Below are positions 3 through 52,590 of a DNA stretch of 64,000 nt, piece by piece. Source of the stretch: Escherichia coli (lineage in GTDB: Bacteria; Pseudomonadota; Gammaproteobacteria; Enterobacterales; Enterobacteriaceae); assembly GCF_024502345.1 (NCBI RefSeq), contig NZ_JALDNN010000001.1; one strand, given 5' to 3'. Under the pieces are notes generated by a model. That model was not told where the DNA came from, searched no databases, and saw only the letters and a program-made list of their open reading frames with translations. Position numbers and translations under genes: made by a program. Positions within the stretch are counted from its first letter, which is position 1, and every line of letters begins with the position of its first letter.

Positions 3-989
3 ATGACGCCGTGGGACGATGCCATCGCGCAGTGGAGTTTTGATAAAGGCCTGCCTGCGGGCGCGGGCACCGACACGTTACCCGGCGTGCCGTACCAGAT
101 TTTGCCGTTAAAAAGCGGTGAGAAAACCTACGGGCTGGTGGTGGTGGAACCGGGGAATCTGCGTCAGTTGATGATCCCGGAACAGCAGCGCCTGCTGGAG
201 ACGTTTACGCTGTTAGTCGCCAATGCGCTTGAGCGGCTGACGCTGACCGCCAGCGAAGAACAGGCGCGGATGGCAAGCGAACGTGAACAGATCCGCAACG
301 CCCTGCTGGCGGCGCTTTCGCATGATTTACGCACTCCGCTCACGGTGTTGTTCGGTCAGGCAGAAATCTTAACGCTCGATCTGGCAAGCGAAGGATCGCC
401 CCACGCCCGCCAGGCCAGCGAGATTCGTCAGCATGTGCTGAACACTACCCGACTGGTGAATAATCTACTGGATATGGCGCGAATTCAGTCCGGCGGCTTT
501 AATTTGAAGAAAGAGTGGTTAACGCTGGAAGAAGTAGTCGGCAGCGCGCTGCAAATGCTGGAACCGGGTTTATCGTCGCCCATCAACCTTTCTCTGCCAG
601 AACCGCTGACCTTAATCCACGTTGACGGGCCACTCTTTGAACGGGTGCTGATTAATCTGCTGGAGAACGCGGTGAAATATGCGGGTGCGCAGGCGGAAAT
701 TGGTATCGATGCCCACGTTGAGGGCGAAAATCTACAACTGGATGTCTGGGATAACGGCCCCGGTCTTCCGCCAGGCCAGGAGCAGACGATATTTGATAAA
801 TTTGCTCGCGGGAATAAAGAGTCGGCAGTACCGGGTGTAGGGCTTGGACTGGCAATTTGTCGGGCGATAGTGGATGTACACGGGGGCACTATTACCGCGT
901 TCAACCGACCGGAAGGTGGTGCCTGTTTTCGTGTTACACTTCCCCAGCAAACTGCCCCTGAACTTGAAGAATTTCATGAGGATATGTGA
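3..989 (+). CDS. kdpD: Sensor histidine kinase KdpD, C-terminal 328 aa (5' end lies outside window)
   Basis: ORF open at window edge; H-box (SHDLRTPL) and HATPase motifs (DNGPGL, GVGLGL); stop overlaps kdpE start (ATGA). Confidence 0.95.
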   Translation: MTPWDDAIAQWSFDKGLPAGAGTDTLPGVPYQILPLKSGEKTYGLVVVEPGNLRQLMIPEQQRLLETFTLLVANALERLTLTASEEQARMASEREQIRNALLAALSHDLRTPLTVLFGQAEILTLDLASEGSPHARQASEIRQHVLNTTRLVNNLLDMARIQSGGFNLKKEWLTLEEVVGSALQMLEPGLSSPINLSLPEPLTLIHVDGPLFERVLINLLENAVKYAGAQAEIGIDAHVEGENLQLDVWDNGPGLPPGQEQTIFDKFARGNKESAVPGVGLGLAICRAIVDVHGGTITAFNRPEGGACFRVTLPQQTAPELEEFHEDM

Positions 990-1663
990 CAAACGTTCTG
1001 ATTGTTGAAGATGAACAGGCTATTCGTCGCTTTCTGCGCACGGCGCTGGAGGGCGACGGTATGCGCGTCTTTGAGGCCGAAACGCTGCAACGCGGCTTGC
1101 TGGAAGCGGCAACCCGTAAGCCAGATTTGATTATTCTCGATCTCGGCCTGCCCGATGGTGATGGGATTGAGTTTATCCGCGACCTGCGCCAGTGGAGCGC
1201 GGTGCCGGTGATTGTGCTTTCCGTACGCAGCGAAGAGAGCGACAAAATCGCCGCGCTGGATGCCGGAGCGGATGATTATCTAAGTAAGCCGTTTGGCATT
1301 GGCGAATTGCAGGCCCGTCTGCGCGTCGCTTTACGCCGCCACTCCGCCACCGCCGCGCCAGATCCGCTGGTGAAATTTTCCGATGTTACCGTCGATTTAG
1401 CCGCCCGCGTGATTCACCGGGGTGAGGAAGAGGTGCATCTCACGCCGATTGAATTCCGCCTGCTGGCGGTGCTGCTGAATAATGCCGGGAAAGTGCTCAC
1501 CCAGCGCCAACTCCTTAACCAGGTGTGGGGGCCAAACGCGGTCGAACACAGTCATTATTTGCGTATTTATATGGGACATCTGCGACAAAAACTGGAACAG
1601 GATCCCACCCGCCCCCGCCATTTCATTACTGAAACCGGTATTGGGTATCGGTTTATGCTTTAG
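986..1663 (+). CDS. kdpE: Response regulator KdpE (OmpR family)
   Basis: 225 aa; receiver domain plus winged-helix C-terminus; translationally coupled to kdpD. Confidence 0.95.
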   Translation: MTNVLIVEDEQAIRRFLRTALEGDGMRVFEAETLQRGLLEAATRKPDLIILDLGLPDGDGIEFIRDLRQWSAVPVIVLSVRSEESDKIAALDAGADDYLSKPFGIGELQARLRVALRRHSATAAPDPLVKFSDVTVDLAARVIHRGEEEVHLTPIEFRLLAVLLNNAGKVLTQRQLLNQVWGPNAVEHSHYLRIYMGHLRQKLEQDPTRPRHFITETGIGYRFML

Positions 1664-1673
1664 GCGGTTAAAT

Positions 1674-1772
1674 GCTGGATCCGGCATGAACGCCTTATCC
1701 GGCCTACAAAATCGCTTAAATTCAATATATTGCACCATCCTCGCAGGCCTGATAAGCGTAGCGCATCAGGCA
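1674..1772. repeat. REP/BIME element (Y-type REP, spacer with IHF-like motif, inverted Z-type REP; RIP-like)
   Basis: gccggat..cgccttatccggcctac and aggcctgataagcgtagcgcatcaggc palindromic units; near-identical copies at 9104-9201 and 17516-17614. Confidence 0.8.
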
Positions 1773-1792
1773 ATTCTGTGTTTGTCATACGT

Positions 1793-1826
1793 AAAAAAGG
1801 GCGATCTTGCGACCGCCCTTTTTTTA
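1793..1826. terminator. Bidirectional intrinsic terminator between kdpE and pgm
   Basis: GC hairpin gggcgatcttgcgaccgccc flanked by A-run upstream and T-run downstream. Confidence 0.7.
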
Positions 1827-1836
1827 TTAAATGTGT

Positions 1837-3477
1837 TTACGCGTTTTTCAGAACTTCGCTAACAATCTCAACCGCTTCTTTCTCAATCTGCTTGCGATGT
1901 TCTTCACCGAGGAAGCTTTCGCAGTAGATCTTATATGCGTCTTCCGTGCCTGACGGACGCGCGGCGAACCAGCCGTTGTCAGTCATCACTTTCAGACCGC
2001 CAATAGAAGCACCGTTGCCCGGAGCAGCAGTCAGGCGCGCGGTGATCGGATCACCTGCCAGGGTGCTGGCGCTCACCATTTCCGGAGACAGCTTAGACAG
2101 CGCCGCTTTTTGTGCGGAAGTCGCAGCTGCCTGCAAACGGTTGTAGCTCGGCGCACCAAAGCGTTTTGCCAGTTCGTTGTAGTGTTCCTGCGGGTTCTTA
2201 CCGGTGACAGCGGTGATTTCCGCCGCCAGCAGACACATGATGATGCCGTCTTTGTCGGTGGACCACGGCGTGCCGTCGAAACGCAGGAAGGAAGCCCCTG
2301 CGCTCTCTTCGCCGCCAAAGCCGAAGCTGCCGTCGAACAGACCATCAACAAACCATTTGAAACCTACCGGGACTTCTACCAGCTTGCGGCCCAAGTCATT
2401 GACCACACGGTCGATCATCGCAGAAGAAACCAGCGTTTTACCGACAGCAACATCTTTGCTCCACTGCGGACGATGCTGGAACAGGTAGTTGATCGCCACC
2501 GCCAGGTAGTGGTTCGGATTCATCAAACCTGCCGGAGTGACAATACCGTGACGGTCATAATCCGGGTCGTTAGCAAACGCCAGATCGAACTTATCACGCA
2601 GTGCCAGCAGGCCTGCCATTGCACACTCAGAGGAGCAGTCCATACGGATCGCGCCGTCTTTATCAAGGTGCATAAAGCGGAAGGTTTGATCGACCTGATC
2701 GTTAACGATAGTCAGGTTGAGGTTGTAATACTCGCCAATACGCTTCCAGTATTCGATACCGGAACCGCCCAGCGGATCAACGCCAAGCGTCAGGCCCGCT
2801 TTCTGAATCGCCGCCATATCAACGATATCGGCCAGCCCTTCCACAAACGGCTGCACCAGATCCTGCTCTTTCACATGACCGGATGCCATCGCTTCGTCGA
2901 GGGAGATACGCTTCACGCCTTTCAGGCCATCGGCCATCAGTGCGTTGGCTCTGTCTTCCACCACTTTAGTGACGTTGGTATCTGCCGGGCCACCATTTGG
3001 CGGATTGTATTTGATTCCACCATCTTCCGGCGGGTTATGGGACGGTGTAATCACGATACCGTCTGCCAGCGGGCCACCTTTTTTATTGTGAACCAGGATG
3101 GCATTGGAAACGGCAGGCGTCGGGGTGAAGCCATTGTTTTCCTGCACAATAACATCTACGCCGTTCGCTGCCAGCACTTCCAGTACGGAAATGAACGCAG
3201 GCTCGGACAGGGCGTGAGTATCTTTACCCACATAGCAAGGGCCAGTGATGCCGTTTTTCGCACGTTCTTCAGCAATTGCCTGAGCGATCGCCAGAATGTG
3301 CGGCTCGTTAAAGCTGTGGCGCGCTGCACTGCCACGGTGACCGGAAGTACCGAATTTCACCGCGTGCTCCGCATTCCCTGCTTCTGGTTTCAGTACATAA
3401 TATTGCGCCGTCAGTTGGGCGACGTTAATCAAATCACTCTGTTGTGCAGGTTGGCCTGCACGATTGTGGATTGCCAT
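1837..3477 (-). CDS. pgm: Phosphoglucomutase
   Basis: 546 aa from internal Met (MAIHNRAG...); TSGHRGS and SHNPPEDGG motifs; six-frame ORF carries a 17-codon upstream extension. Confidence 0.95.
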
Positions 3478-3502
3478 TGCTTTGTCCTTTGTCTGCAACG
3501 TT

Positions 3503-4048
3503 TTAGATAGTTCCGCAAACCTTCTCAATCAATTCCGCCGGGAATTGCATCGACTGCATGATGTGTTCGATCATGCTGCATTTACGGCCGGTGTTGGTGT
3601 TGGTGATCACCCAATACGGCGTGCCTGGCACATGTTTCGGCTTGGTCTGATTACCATTTTTCAGCAGCGTTTGTTCATCTGCCGCAAAGTAAACGCGTGT
3701 ACGACCGTGCAACGATTCCGTTGCTTCGGCAAACGCCTGGGCGTCAAGAGAATATAGTGTAGACAACAGCAGCATAAAGCGATTGACCGCTCGCTTTTGC
3801 TCTGCGTATTCATCCGAAAGCAGAAGTTCACGCATTGCGCGAACCTTGTCTTTAATCGTTTTGACCGGCTTCGCTTCGACGATAGCAGGTGACGCAACGC
3901 GAACCTCTTTCGTCACCAGAGCAGCAGGCTGTGATGCGGCGGAAAATTTCAACATACGCCGTAAAATGTCGGATGCGCTCTCGCCGATATGCTTAGTGTG
4001 GCTGGCAATATAGCTGTAGAGTTCATCATCAACTTCAATCGTTTTCAT
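3503..4048 (-). CDS. seqA: SeqA, negative modulator of replication initiation
   Basis: 181 aa from internal Met ([13 protein letters not shown]...); ORF track start at 4183 is an N-terminal extension. Confidence 0.92.
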
Positions 4049-32426: not shown

Positions 32427-32816
32427 TCAATCAACTGTGACTTTTTTCCCAAAATCCTCTTCTGCAATCCAGGTTAAAAACGATGTATCGGCGCCACCTA
32501 ATTTAACAACGCGATCATATAACATCATAACACCAAAATCATGTTCGATATCCCAGGAGCATGAGAACTCGAAACCAATATAAGGCTGGCCATTATTATG
32601 CACCGATAAAATATGTATCGCTAATGGTGATAACAACTTTGAAAAATCCTCTTGAGTTCCAACATCTGGCATATACAACTCTTTTTCTTCCTCGTCATAG
32701 TCATATTGCCCTTGTAAATCAGGATATTTTTTCATAAGTTCCGAAAGAATGGATGCCAAAATTTCAGATTGATGAACAATAATATACTGTAACCCAGTCT
32801 TATGGCATTCGCTCAT
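32427..32816 (-). CDS. Hypothetical acidic protein (129 aa), function unknown
   Basis: Intact ORF in an AT-rich island; by my count 23 acidic versus 9 basic residues; no signal peptide or TM segment; no motif I recognise. Confidence 0.6.
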   Translation of the reverse strand: MSECHKTGLQYIIVHQSEILASILSELMKKYPDLQGQYDYDEEEKELYMPDVGTQEDFSKLLSPLAIHILSVHNNGQPYIGFEFSCSWDIEHDFGVMMLYDRVVKLGGADTSFLTWIAEEDFGKKVTVD

Positions 32817-32855
32817 ACATGAAGTTGGATCATCGCCACCAAGGCTGTAGTATAA

Positions 32856-33377
32856 TTATTCAGCCTCATCACCGAAAAAACTCACCCAGGATGATAAGAC
32901 TATTGGTTCACAGACTCGGTCATCCTCATACTCTGGTTCCGACAATATTTTAGGTTCATCAAGATGACGGTTAAAAAACTCCATACATGCACGGTTACGG
33001 GTAAAGATATATTCTTTATTTTCATCATAACTACGTTGAAAATAGTTAAGCGCATCATCCTCTGCTCCACACGCATAAAGGCACTCACCGCGATAGTAAT
33101 TAACAATATAGTATTCATTTATTTTTCTGTTGACATGGTTATCACCTATAGTTAGCCAACGCTTAACATTTTCAATGTCTTTTAACTTAATATATTCATT
33201 CACCATCCTGCCAATAATGATATTGGCATCATGTATTTTATATTTTTCCTCATCCATGATGCTCCACTGACATTCAATAAATTCAATAATATCCGTTGAT
33301 GTAATATTGCTATTTTTGAGCATCGAGCGGTCCAGAAAACTATAAATCTCTGCTACTTTCTCTAACGCATTTGACAT
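32856..33377 (-). CDS. Hypothetical acidic protein (173 aa), function unknown
   Basis: Intact ORF with aagaggga RBS before ATG; by my count ~34 acidic versus ~20 basic residues; five Cys; no motif I recognise; 39-bp gap to the downstream ORF suggests an operon. Confidence 0.6.
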   Translation of the reverse strand: MSNALEKVAEIYSFLDRSMLKNSNITSTDIIEFIECQWSIMDEEKYKIHDANIIIGRMVNEYIKLKDIENVKRWLTIGDNHVNRKINEYYIVNYYRGECLYACGAEDDALNYFQRSYDENKEYIFTRNRACMEFFNRHLDEPKILSEPEYEDDRVCEPIVLSSWVSFFGDEAE

Positions 33378-48720: not shown

Positions 48721-48928
48721 AAAAGTATTGTTACAGCCAGATCACAGCGCAGAACGATAAAATGGCACAATCCAACAACAATTTTACATTTTCGCGACCG
48801 CTTTGGCTGCTTTCAGGTCCGTTTCAATGATATACTGCCAGTCGTTAATTCAAAAATAGTTGATAATTACAACAATCTATTGAATTGAAACGCTTTCCTT
48901 CGTAATTCGCAACTGGAACACGCACGCT

Positions 48929-49894
48929 ATGAGTAAACCCATTGTGATGGAACGCGGTGTAAAATACCGCGATGCCGATAAGATGGCCCTTATCCCGGTT
49001 AAAAACGTGGCAACAGAGCGCGAAGCCCTGCTGCGCAAGCCGGAATGGATGAAAATCAAGCTTCCAGCGGACTCTACACGTATCCAGGGCATCAAAGCCG
49101 CAATGCGCAAAAATGGCCTGCATTCTGTCTGCGAGGAAGCCTCCTGCCCTAACCTGGCGGAATGCTTCAACCAAGGCACAGCAACGTTTATGATCCTCGG
49201 CGCTATTTGTACCCGCCGTTGTCCGTTCTGTGACGTTGCCCACGGTCGCCCGGTAGCTCCTGATGCCAATGAACCAGTGAAACTGGCGCAGACCATTGCC
49301 GATATGGCGCTGCGTTATGTGGTTATCACCTCCGTTGACCGTGATGACCTGCGCGATGGCGGTGCCCAGCACTTTGCGGATTGCATTACTGCCATTCGGG
49401 AAAAAAGCCCGCAAATCAAAATTGAAACTCTGGTGCCGGATTTCCGCGGTCGTATGGATCGTGCTCTGGATATTCTGACTGCAACGCCACCAGATGTGTT
49501 CAACCATAACCTGGAAAACGTACCGCGTATTTACCGTCAGGTACGGCCTGGTGCAGATTACAACTGGTCGCTGAAGCTGCTGGAACGCTTTAAAGAAGCG
49601 CATCCGGAAATCCCGACCAAGTCTGGTCTGATGGTGGGTCTGGGTGAAACCAATGAAGAAATTATTGAGGTAATGCGCGACCTGCGCCGTCATGGTGTGA
49701 CGATGTTAACGCTGGGGCAATATTTGCAGCCAAGCCGCCATCACCTGCCGGTTCAACGTTACGTTAGCCCGGATGAGTTCGACGAAATGAAAGCCGAAGC
49801 GCTGGCGATGGGCTTTACCCATGCTGCATGCGGTCCGTTTGTCCGCTCTTCTTACCACGCCGATTTGCAGGCGAAAGGGATGGAAGTTAAGTAA
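48929..49894 (+). CDS. lipA: Lipoyl synthase (radical SAM)
   Basis: 321 aa; CTRRCPFC and CxxxxCxxxxxC cluster motifs. Confidence 0.96.
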
Positions 49895-49994: not shown

Positions 49995-50198
49995 TCACTC
50001 TTTATGAGAGAGCTTTTCAGCCTGAAGATCAACGTCTGCGCCTTTTTTCGCCGCAGCATCGTCATCATTCATCGCCTTCTTGAACCCTTTAATGGCCGCT
50101 CCAAGGTCTCCGCCCAGCGTACGTAACTTCTTAGTCCCAAACAGCAGAACGACCAGCGCCGCAACTACCAGCAGTTTGGTAATACTAATCTCACCCAT
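49995..50198 (-). CDS. tatE: Sec-independent translocase component TatE
   Basis: 67 aa; N-terminal TM helix plus amphipathic helix. Confidence 0.92.
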
Positions 50199-50326
50199 AG
50201 ATACCTTCTTGACATATAACCGGCAACAGAACGCGCCTTAAAAACCAGAGAATATTAACGGTCATTCGACGCGCGCACACAATAGCAATCTGTAACAAGG
50301 TGAATCAAGCGCCGAGTAAAAAAACA

Positions 50327-51121
50327 TCATAATAATTGCGGCGACGCAAAGCGACGGTTGTTTAAGACGGGCAGTTGCGCGCGCACCTGACGCACACGTT
50401 CGGGCGTCACTTCCGCCATAATGAGTGCAGGCATTTCTGACGCTGCCGCAATGGTGACGCCAAAGGGATCTATAATCCGGCTTTGCCCGATATTTTTGTT
50501 CCCGCACTCCCCCGCCGCCACCATATAACAGGTGGTATCCAGCGCACGAGCGGCAAGCAACGTTGACCAGTGATGCTCTTTGAGCGGCCCGCGAACCCAG
50601 GCGGCAGGAAGCACCAGGATTTCAGCTCCCTGTAATGCCTGTGCCAGCGCCAGCTCTGGAAAGCGTAAGTCATAACAGGTCATCAGACCGACCTTCATCC
50701 CTTCCACCTCCAGTAACGGAGCTATTTCATTACCAGCATCAACATGGCGTGATTCCTGAATGGCAAATGCATCATAGAGATGCAGTTTGGCATAACGGGC
50801 GACAATGTTTCCTGCCTGTAGCGCCACCAGCATATTCCATGCGCGCCCCGGCGTTGAAGGAACATGAATCGTCAGAATTGTCGTCATCATGTTACGTTTA
50901 CTTTCTCGCCGTAAACGTCCGAGGAATTCGCCTTCCAGCAGCTGTGCTGATTTAACCGATAGATCTGCATCATGATCATCGCGTGCCAGCAATGCTTCCG
51001 GCAGGACAAACAGCGATACGTCGTTTTCCGCCGCCTGCGCCATCAACGAGGCACAAATCTCAGCGTTCTTTTCCCACACAGATGTAACAGCAAACTGTCC
51101 TGCAGCAACCAGCATTGCCAC
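50327..51121 (-). CDS. ybeM: Carbon-nitrogen hydrolase (nitrilase superfamily) YbeM, apparently intact
   Basis: 264-aa uninterrupted ORF (start may be 2 codons downstream); GECGNKNIG around the expected catalytic Cys. Confidence 0.8.
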
Positions 51122-51207
51122 CTCCTGTCAGAGTCGTAAAATTCGCCAACGACGATTATTCGGCGTTACACTTATCACTCATACAAATCAAATAGCAGGA
51201 TTTTGCA

Positions 51208-51591
51208 GTGTTACAACTTCTTTTAGCAGTTTTTATTGGCGGTGGTACAGGAAGCGTGGCGAGATGGCTGTTAAGTATGCGATTTAACCCGCTGCATCAG
51301 GCGATTCCGTTGGGGACGCTGGCAGCAAACCTGATTGGGGCATTCATCATAGGAATGGGATTCGCCTGGTTCAGCAGGATGACGAACATTGATCCAGTGT
51401 GGAAAGTATTAATCACCACCGGATTTTGTGGCGGTCTAACAACCTTCTCAACATTTTCGGCAGAAGTGGTGTTTTTGTTACAAGAGGGCCGCTTTGGCTG
51501 GGCGTTACTGAACGTTTTCGTCAACCTTCTGGGGTCTTTTGCCATGACAGCACTGGCTTTCTGGCTGTTTTCGGCCTCAACCGCACACTAA
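51208..51591 (+). CDS. crcB: Fluoride export channel CrcB/Fluc
   Basis: 127 aa; four TM helices; TTG start. Confidence 0.9.
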
Positions 51592-51596
51592 AGACC

Positions 51597-51626
51597 AAAA
51601 AAAAACCCGCTGATTAAGCGGGTTTT
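51597..51626. terminator. Bidirectional intrinsic terminator between crcB and cspE
   Basis: aaaaaaaaacccgc-tgattaa-gcgggtttt. Confidence 0.8.
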
Positions 51627-51645
51627 GAATTCTTGCTGACGTATC

Positions 51646-51855
51646 TTACAGAGCGATTACGTTTGCAGCAGAAGGGCCTTTGGCACCGTTAGTGATTTCG
51701 AACTCTACGCGCTGACCTTCAGCAAGAGTTTTAAAACCATTAGTCTGGATTGCAGAGAAGTGTACGAACACGTCTTTGCTGCCGTCTTCCGGAGTAATGA
51801 AACCGAATCCTTTGGACTCATTAAACCACTTAACGTTACCTTTAATCTTAGACAT
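51646..51855 (-). CDS. cspE: Cold-shock-domain protein CspE
   Basis: 69 aa from internal Met; KGFGFI (RNP1) and VFVHF (RNP2) motifs. Confidence 0.95.
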
Positions 51856-52029
51856 CAAAATTACCTTTACATGAAAAATAGACACAAATGCTGTGTCGGT
51901 TACCAGTACACCAATTGTGGTACGCTTTGTCCAGTGCAACTTTACTAAAAAGTGATAAAAGTCGCGTTATTTTTGATGTTACTTATTTTAGCTATTGATT
52001 TTAAAGAAGTTACTAAAACTTCATTTGTC

Positions 52030-52590
52030 TCAAAACTGAAAGCGCATCCAGGCAAAGTACACATTGCCATTGTTGTAGGTACCCGGAATGTAGGTCATCT
52101 GAAAAGTCACTGGGCCATAACCCACGGAGGCCAATGGCAGTAGAACCGGGAGAGGGATGTAATTCCAGTTATCGCGTGCCGTTACGCCAGCGGTGAATCC
52201 CAGACCTAAATGAAAATTTTCATCCGCCAGCGGTCGCCAGGTACTTTCCCATCCGTATCCGGCAATCGGTTCCCATTTGTTCCACGAGTCCTTAAATGCC
52301 ATGGCATACAGGCCATGCCAGTTTCCTTTTTCATCCCAACGCGACAGGCCAAAACCGCCACCCCACGGTCGCTCGTTATAGCGATCGGTTTTTTCTTTGT
52401 CGTAAGCGAAACGTGCATGCCAGGTGATGGCAGGAATATATAAATCATAATGTTCAGGCTGTTGCCAGGTTTGTGCAATATTTTCTCTAAACGTTGTCAT
52501 CCACTCATCTGCGTTAGCAAAAACTTTACCAACGCTGATTAACTGAATAAAAACAAAGGAAAAGATAGCGACATATTTACTCACGTTCAT
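52030..52590 (-). CDS. pagP: Lipid A palmitoyltransferase PagP
   Basis: 186 aa from internal Met; signal peptide; small beta-barrel. Confidence 0.92.

Follow-up and report, generated by a model that had tools for sequence, protein, structure and literature searches.

An Intact ybeM Allele in Escherichia coli, Probably Encoding a Nit1-Type Deaminated Glutathione Amidase, and the Single-Base Deletion That Truncates It in K-12 and a Related Lineage

Introduction

Nit1 converts deaminated glutathione (dGSH), the α-keto analogue of glutathione, to α-ketoglutarate and Cys-Gly, and thereby corrects a side reaction of transaminases (PMC10452834). The product of the yeast NIT2 gene is the Nit1 ortholog (PMC5714238), and dGSH amidase is present in many bacteria (PMC7041631).

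The Escherichia coli gene ybeM, the function assigned to it and its status as a pseudogene in K-12 are all already known and stand in the current annotation. The E. coli enzyme itself was reportedly also assayed by Peracchi et al. in 2017. Here we describe ybeM in a 64-kb stretch of E. coli DNA (the window). What the analysis adds is modest: the exact coordinates of the K-12 lesion, the recognition of the deletion (ΔG200) as a natural lineage allele that exists beside other, independent knock-outs of the gene, and two substitutions private to K-12, V33A and V37A.

Results

The ybeM Frame and Its Start Codon

The ORF listing of the window contains a minus-strand ORF of 264 aa with a GTG start (50327..51121), which the earlier note had read as an intact ybeM of that length. 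The frame is indeed open from end to end at these coordinates, but the length did not hold, as 264 aa is the maximal frame and the real start lies two codons further in, at an ATG (51113-51115). Upstream of this ATG the coding strand reads ...CTGACAGGAGGTGGCA-ATG, in which a Shine-Dalgarno sequence, AGGAGG (51121..51126, minus strand, read from the sequence), stands 5 nt from the start codon. The GTG (51119-51121) was rejected as the start because it overlaps this Shine-Dalgarno sequence and because the orthologs and PGAP agree on the ATG: the start methionine is common to 13 of 13 aligned orthologs from eight genera, and PGAP calls a 789-bp ybeM CDS (WP_001401281.1) in strain 88-3493. The predicted gene is thus a minus-strand CDS at 50327..51115, with 262 codons and a TGA stop, for a Nit1-type deaminated glutathione amidase of the nitrilase superfamily.

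Strain 88-3493 is 98.9% identical to the window over the whole 64 kb and 100% identical over the ybeM segment (50200-51210); the best 20-kb match of the window in the complete-genome collection is 99.3%. These values suggest a mosaic or recombinant relationship with 88-3493 at the ybeM locus. A foreign origin of ybeM was considered and rejected, as its GC content of 0.50-0.56 is typical of the core genome.

The length of an ORF alone is no evidence for a gene, because the window also holds a 282-aa frame antisense to lipA (48845-49693, minus strand). We count ybeM as a gene because of its homology, that is, its Pfam and NCBIfam matches.

Assignment to the Deaminated Glutathione Amidase Family

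The gene order lipA, tatE, ybeM, crcB, cspE, pagP is common to the window, MG1655, BL21(DE3), UM146 and 88-3493. In the window, tatE (49995..50198, minus strand) lies 128 bp downstream of ybeM with lipA to its left, and crcB (51208..51591, plus strand) is separated from ybeM by a 92-bp spacer, with cspE to its right. By its synteny with crcB on one side and tatE-lipA on the other, the window gene is the orthologue of E. coli ybeM.

The 262-aa protein matches the Pfam CN_hydrolase family (PF00795) with E=4.3e-41 and 141.4 bits, against a cutoff of 23.2, and the match runs from residue 5 to 247 and takes up nearly the complete profile (positions 2-255 of 256), which bears out the CN-hydrolase features noticed at first reading. 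The deaminated-glutathione amidase-like character proposed with them is sustained by the NCBIfam model NF033621 (de_GSH_amidase, deaminated glutathione amidase), on which the protein scores 450.8 bits (curated cutoff, 355) over profile positions 2-260 of 260. On the same model the alleles of BL21(DE3) and UM146 score 452 and 450, and the K-12 stub described below scores 82.8. Among the NCBIfam CN-hydrolase models, the cutoff of the omega-amidase model of the YafV/Nit2 type (NF007757, PRK10438) was not passed (61.5 bits against 249), nor was that of the true nitrilase model (NF040852, 61.5 bits against 500), and the nitrilase, formamidase, aliphatic amidase, AguB and Lnt models all scored far under their own cutoffs.

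A phmmer search against PDB chains matched NitFhit of C. elegans (1EMS; 1.6e-29, 106 bits), Nit2 of S. cerevisiae (4H5U; 1.1e-26, 97 bits) and Nit2 of K. lactis (7ELF), and matched mouse Nit2 (2W1V, 82 bits) and yeast Nit3 (1F89, 75 bits) more weakly. An AlphaFold2 model built from the ortholog alignment reached a pLDDT of 80.7 and a pTM of 0.84. Foldseek placed this model nearest to yeast Nit2 structures, including 4HGD, which contains an 'endogenous peptide-like ligand' (TM about 0.8, probability 1.00), and Nit2, NitFhit, N-carbamoylputrescine amidohydrolase and formamidase structures were all matched with probability 1.00 and TM 0.73-0.83. The protein is predicted by the model to have the alpha-beta-beta-alpha sandwich fold of the nitrilase superfamily.

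These matches bear on whether YbeM might be mainly an omega-amidase of the Nit2/YafV type, acting on 2-oxoglutaramate or 2-oxosuccinamate rather than on dGSH. Such an enzyme would belong to the same branch and have the same fold, and both 2W1V (TM 0.83) and 1F89 (TM 0.79) are matched by sequence as well; moreover, according to the titles of their PDB entries, yeast Nit2 crystals bind α-ketoglutarate and oxaloacetate. Because mouse Nit2 reaches a TM of 0.83, the fold has no power to split Nit1-type from Nit2-type enzymes, and the separation comes from the curated HMMs. There, the protein falls far short of the NF007757 cutoff and beats that of NF033621 by nearly 100 bits, and the Nit1-type structures outscore the Nit2-type ones in the sequence search (106 and 97 bits against 82 and 75). 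We consider a mainly omega-amidase function very unlikely, and a Nit1-type amidase the preferred reading.

Active-Site Residues and Proposed Mechanism

The expected catalytic Glu-Lys-Cys triad was found, together with a second glutamate. With residues counted from the ATG and all codons on the minus strand, the general base would be Glu40 (GAA, 50996..50998), which lies in the motif VLPE and aligns with E54 of NitFhit 1EMS, and the catalytic lysine Lys110 (AAA, 50786..50788), which lies in the motif YAKLHLYD and aligns with K127 of 1EMS. The predicted nucleophile, Cys147 (TGT, 50675..50677), corresponds in the alignments to C169 in both 1EMS and yeast Nit2 4H5U, and its column holds a serine in the yeast C169S mutant 4HGD. 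The second active-site glutamate, Glu121 (GAA, 50753..50755, motif QES), falls on the conserved 'ES' that NitFhit and yeast Nit2 share and stands in a loop (residues 114-124) that AlphaFold2 modelled with low confidence. None of the four residues varies among 14 aligned enterobacterial orthologs, drawn from E. coli, E. fergusonii, Citrobacter, Salmonella, Leclercia, Kosakonia, Cronobacter, Enterobacter and Silvania, every one of which is 262 aa long, with 72-99% identity.

We infer the substrate, chemistry and activity of the window allele, and the Cys-Glu-Lys-Glu steps follow the established mechanism of the nitrilase superfamily. Cys147 would attack the amide carbonyl that joins the 2-oxoglutaryl moiety of dGSH to Cys-Gly, with Glu40 as general base and Lys110 stabilising the tetrahedral intermediate and its oxyanion. 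Cys-Gly would then leave, a thioester acyl-enzyme would be formed on Cys147, and Glu121 would help to place the hydrolytic water, after which 2-oxoglutarate would be released. The role of YbeM would be metabolite repair, the salvage of glutathione that has been accidentally deaminated by transaminases.

Expression Signals and Integrity of the Window Allele

The 92-bp spacer between crcB and ybeM contains no Rfam match to a fluoride riboswitch. A simple promoter and terminator scan, whose counts are at chance level, found no convincing ybeM promoter in this spacer, and the sole promoter-like site that it found there points towards crcB. A terminator candidate at 50336-50349 was rejected because it sits inside the end of the ybeM CDS. 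In the uropathogenic strain CFT073, ybeM falls 0.30-fold under NO stress and an NsrR ChIP peak is located at crcB/ybeM (PMC5320621); this expression change indicates that intact ybeM is transcribed in a wild strain. To the right of crcB, the Rfam cspA thermoregulator (RF01766) matches the leader and gene of cspE (51598-52040, minus strand) with 124.4 bits against a gathering score of 78, as expected for a paralog of the csp family.

An open frame may still encode a protein that is dead or silent, either because the uncommon residues H124 and S258 cripple it or because it is not expressed. These residues differ from those of the BL21, UM146 and K-12 alleles, the chance-level scan picked up no sigma-70-like promoter ahead of the gene on the minus strand, and ybeM is evidently dispensable in E. 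coli. However, positions 124 (H/R/N/Y/L/S) and 258 (P/S/I/A) are variable across genera, all invariant and catalytic residues are retained, and a consensus Shine-Dalgarno sequence stands at ideal spacing, whereas a scan that performs at chance gives no ground to exclude a promoter. The identical allele also occurs in strain 88-3493, and its codons differ from those of BL21 and UM146 by 8-11 synonymous changes but only 2 nonsynonymous ones, a pattern that fits purifying selection. A dead or silent allele seems to us slightly less probable still than an omega-amidase, and we retain the reading of an intact Nit1-type enzyme.

The Lesion in K-12

The annotation of MG1655 (NC_000913.3) lists ybeM (b4581) as a 788-bp pseudogene (658031..658818), and PGAP labels the gene of an MG1655 derivative 'frameshifted', in agreement with the K-12 status that the earlier note had given. 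Pairwise alignment with MG1655, which that note had proposed as a check, showed that the K-12 allele is not intact and lacks one G. In a global alignment, the window and MG1655 differ by 12 substitutions and 1 indel, with 98.4% DNA identity over the CDS. The base deleted in K-12 is the coding-strand G at CDS nt 200, in codon 67 (CGT), which is present in the window at position 50916 (minus strand); in MG1655 the deletion point follows coordinate 658229. Its context, GGAC[G]TTTA (GGACGTTTA), contains no homopolymer. The K-12 frame stops 9 codons past the lesion and would give a 75-aa product in which Glu40 is kept but Lys110 and Cys147 are gone. Past the lesion, the frame once shifted is open up to the normal stop, and K-12 ybeM is, by this comparison, a single-lesion pseudogene. 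This 'pseudo gene' has been used as a neutral site for integration (PMC7242477).

Ahead of the frameshift, K-12 has two nonsynonymous changes of its own, V33A (T98C) and V37A (T110C); the bases at CDS nt 98 and 110 of MG1655 have their counterparts in the window at 51018 and 51006. V37, which is 3 residues away from Glu40, does not vary across genera, and natural carriers of ΔG200 are without both changes. K-12 appears to have gained these two further damaging changes after the frameshift, and they are consistent with decay following inactivation. Because K-12 carries V33A and V37A as well, repair of the frameshift alone would be insufficient: it would not yield the wild-type protein, as the two changes near Glu40 would remain.

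Within ybeM, an out-of-frame ORF of 47 aa (50722-50865, minus strand) begins with MFLQRRGAH, and its frame is the one that K-12 reads after the frameshift. The same 9-residue peptide is encoded by a 29-bp ybeM fragment of UTI89 that causes filamentation on over-expression; over-expression of the whole UTI89 ybeM ORF was innocuous, whereas out-of-frame fragments led to filamentation (PMC6206680).

Distribution of Intact and Disrupted Alleles

Allele counts were made as exact matches of diagnostic 61/62-mers in a collection of complete genomes that is not a random sample, so that the percentages are descriptive. Of 5424 complete E. coli genomes, 3622 match the window 62-mer over the deletion site exactly, and 860 (15.9%) match the K-12 61-mer with ΔG200. 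The intact form is the majority state in E. coli and, because 262-aa orthologs occur across Enterobacteriaceae, also the ancestral one, which upholds the description of the window gene as a wild-type allele.

These counts also speak to the suspicion that an error of assembly or sequencing has produced the open frame and that the strain truly carries the K-12-type frameshift. No assembly error is commoner than the single-base indel, and some public assemblies of the ybeM locus look error-ridden, such as two (L011 and L012) with two insertions in homopolymer runs and unusual flanking genes. The deleted G, however, is outside any homopolymer, the window 62-mer recurs exactly in the 3622 genomes above, and at least 10 further positions separate the window haplotype from the lineage that carries the deletion. 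An artefact is extremely improbable, and we treat the frame as intact.

The deletion is not confined to laboratory strains. Its carriers include ECCHD184, from chicken, and FORC 064, from cucumber, as well as dog and human isolates, in all of which PGAP labels the gene 'frameshifted'. The 61-mer with T98C and T110C is exactly matched in 365 genomes, essentially K-12 derivatives; assuming that all 365 carry the deletion, about 495 genomes with ΔG200 are outside the K-12 lineage. ΔG200 is a natural lineage allele and not a peculiarity of K-12.

Other, independent lesions were found in the same gene. ΔC326 is present in two isolates from pangolin and one from swine, whose genomes keep G200, and one of these three, M171-1, also matches the intact 62-mer. 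In E. coli O166:H15 JNE21-003, the IS21-family element ISEc62 (istA/istB) is inserted in ybeM at locus positions 781-3698; PGAP calls the 5' part of this ybeM as a 241-aa 'deaminated glutathione amidase' CDS with no pseudogene flag. The protein database contains a variant with an in-frame deletion (P0117) and a ybeM-tatE fusion (P0017).

Three clusters of 205-215-aa proteins (P0041, P0044 and P0058) were rejected as measures of allele frequency, since clusters at 90% identity mix fragments. The frameshift in an A-run (-1) implied by P0041 had no exact match in the complete genomes, and the source assemblies of P0044, L011 and L012, look error-prone; neither cluster was counted as a real allele. 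A '+3 bp' length class in BLAST was likewise rejected as a ybeM variant, as the extra bases are intergenic and the UM146 CDS is intact.

Repeated loss in natural strains shows that ybeM is dispensable in E. coli: ΔG200 is fixed in a natural lineage, and ΔC326 and the ISEc62 insertion make at least two more independent knock-outs. That strains lacking dGSH repair gain a conditional advantage in certain niches, and do not merely tolerate its absence, is an unlikely though conceivable explanation of the recurrent loss.

Other Features of the Window

In lipA (48929..49894, plus strand), codon 82 (49172-49174) encodes glutamine where K-12, BL21 and 88-3493 (WP_000042632.1) have histidine. The change, CFNHGTATF to CFNQGTATF, falls three residues after Cys79 of the CX4CX5C motif of the auxiliary cluster. 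Not one of 5,426 complete E. coli genomes matches the 61-mer around this codon exactly, whereas 4,864 match it with one mismatch. Gln82 reflects either a nonsynonymous variant private to this DNA or an error in sequencing.

A small minus-strand island (32427-33377) lies between rihA and ybeL, where BL21(DE3) has hscC-djlC-ybeR-ybeQ. It encodes a DUF6985 protein of 129 aa (Pfam, 5e-23) and a 173-aa ORF without a Pfam match, which is annotated in 88-3493 as two shorter hypothetical genes.

Discussion

We conclude, with a probability of roughly 93%, that the window carries the intact ancestral allele of ybeM, a core gene for a Nit1-type dGSH amidase, which ΔG200 has truncated in K-12 and a related lineage. 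K-12 is the exception at this locus, and the finding has little importance beyond correct annotation. In practice, the annotation of ybeM should start at the ATG and give 262 aa. Inferences about the repair of glutathione damage made from K-12, K-12-based metabolic models and knock-out collections are not transferable to most E. coli.

The closest known alleles are those of other E. coli strains. The protein of 88-3493 (WP_001401281.1) is identical to the window protein, that of BL21(DE3) (WP_000959109.1) differs from it only at H124R and S258P, and that of UM146 (WP_001298343.1) differs at two residues, A22G and S258P. All three are intact and 262 aa long, lie at the same locus (crcB <> ybeM > tatE, beside lipA), are annotated 'deaminated glutathione amidase' and have the same NF033621 score as the window protein. 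The K-12 MG1655 gene (b4581) is at the orthologous locus, but it lacks G200 and carries V33A and V37A.

Among more distant relatives, eukaryotic Nit1, yeast Nit2 (YJL126W; 4H5U, 4HGD) and the Nit domain of NitFhit (1EMS) share the predicted fold (TM about 0.8), about 27-30% identity, the E-K-C(-E) residues and the motifs LPE, KLHL(F/Y)D and CYD(L/V/I)RFPE with YbeM. The reaction assigned to YbeM is that of Nit1 and yeast Nit2 (PMC10452834, PMC5714238). With 262 aa, the window protein falls short of the about 300-340 aa of these relatives, and it has neither the insertions of the yeast protein nor a Fhit fusion. The omega-amidases of the Nit2/YafV type (2W1V, 1F89) have the superfamily branch, the fold and the catalytic residues in common with YbeM, but on the NF007757 comparison (61.5 against 249 bits) the YafV-type enzyme is a paralog of ybeM and not its ortholog.
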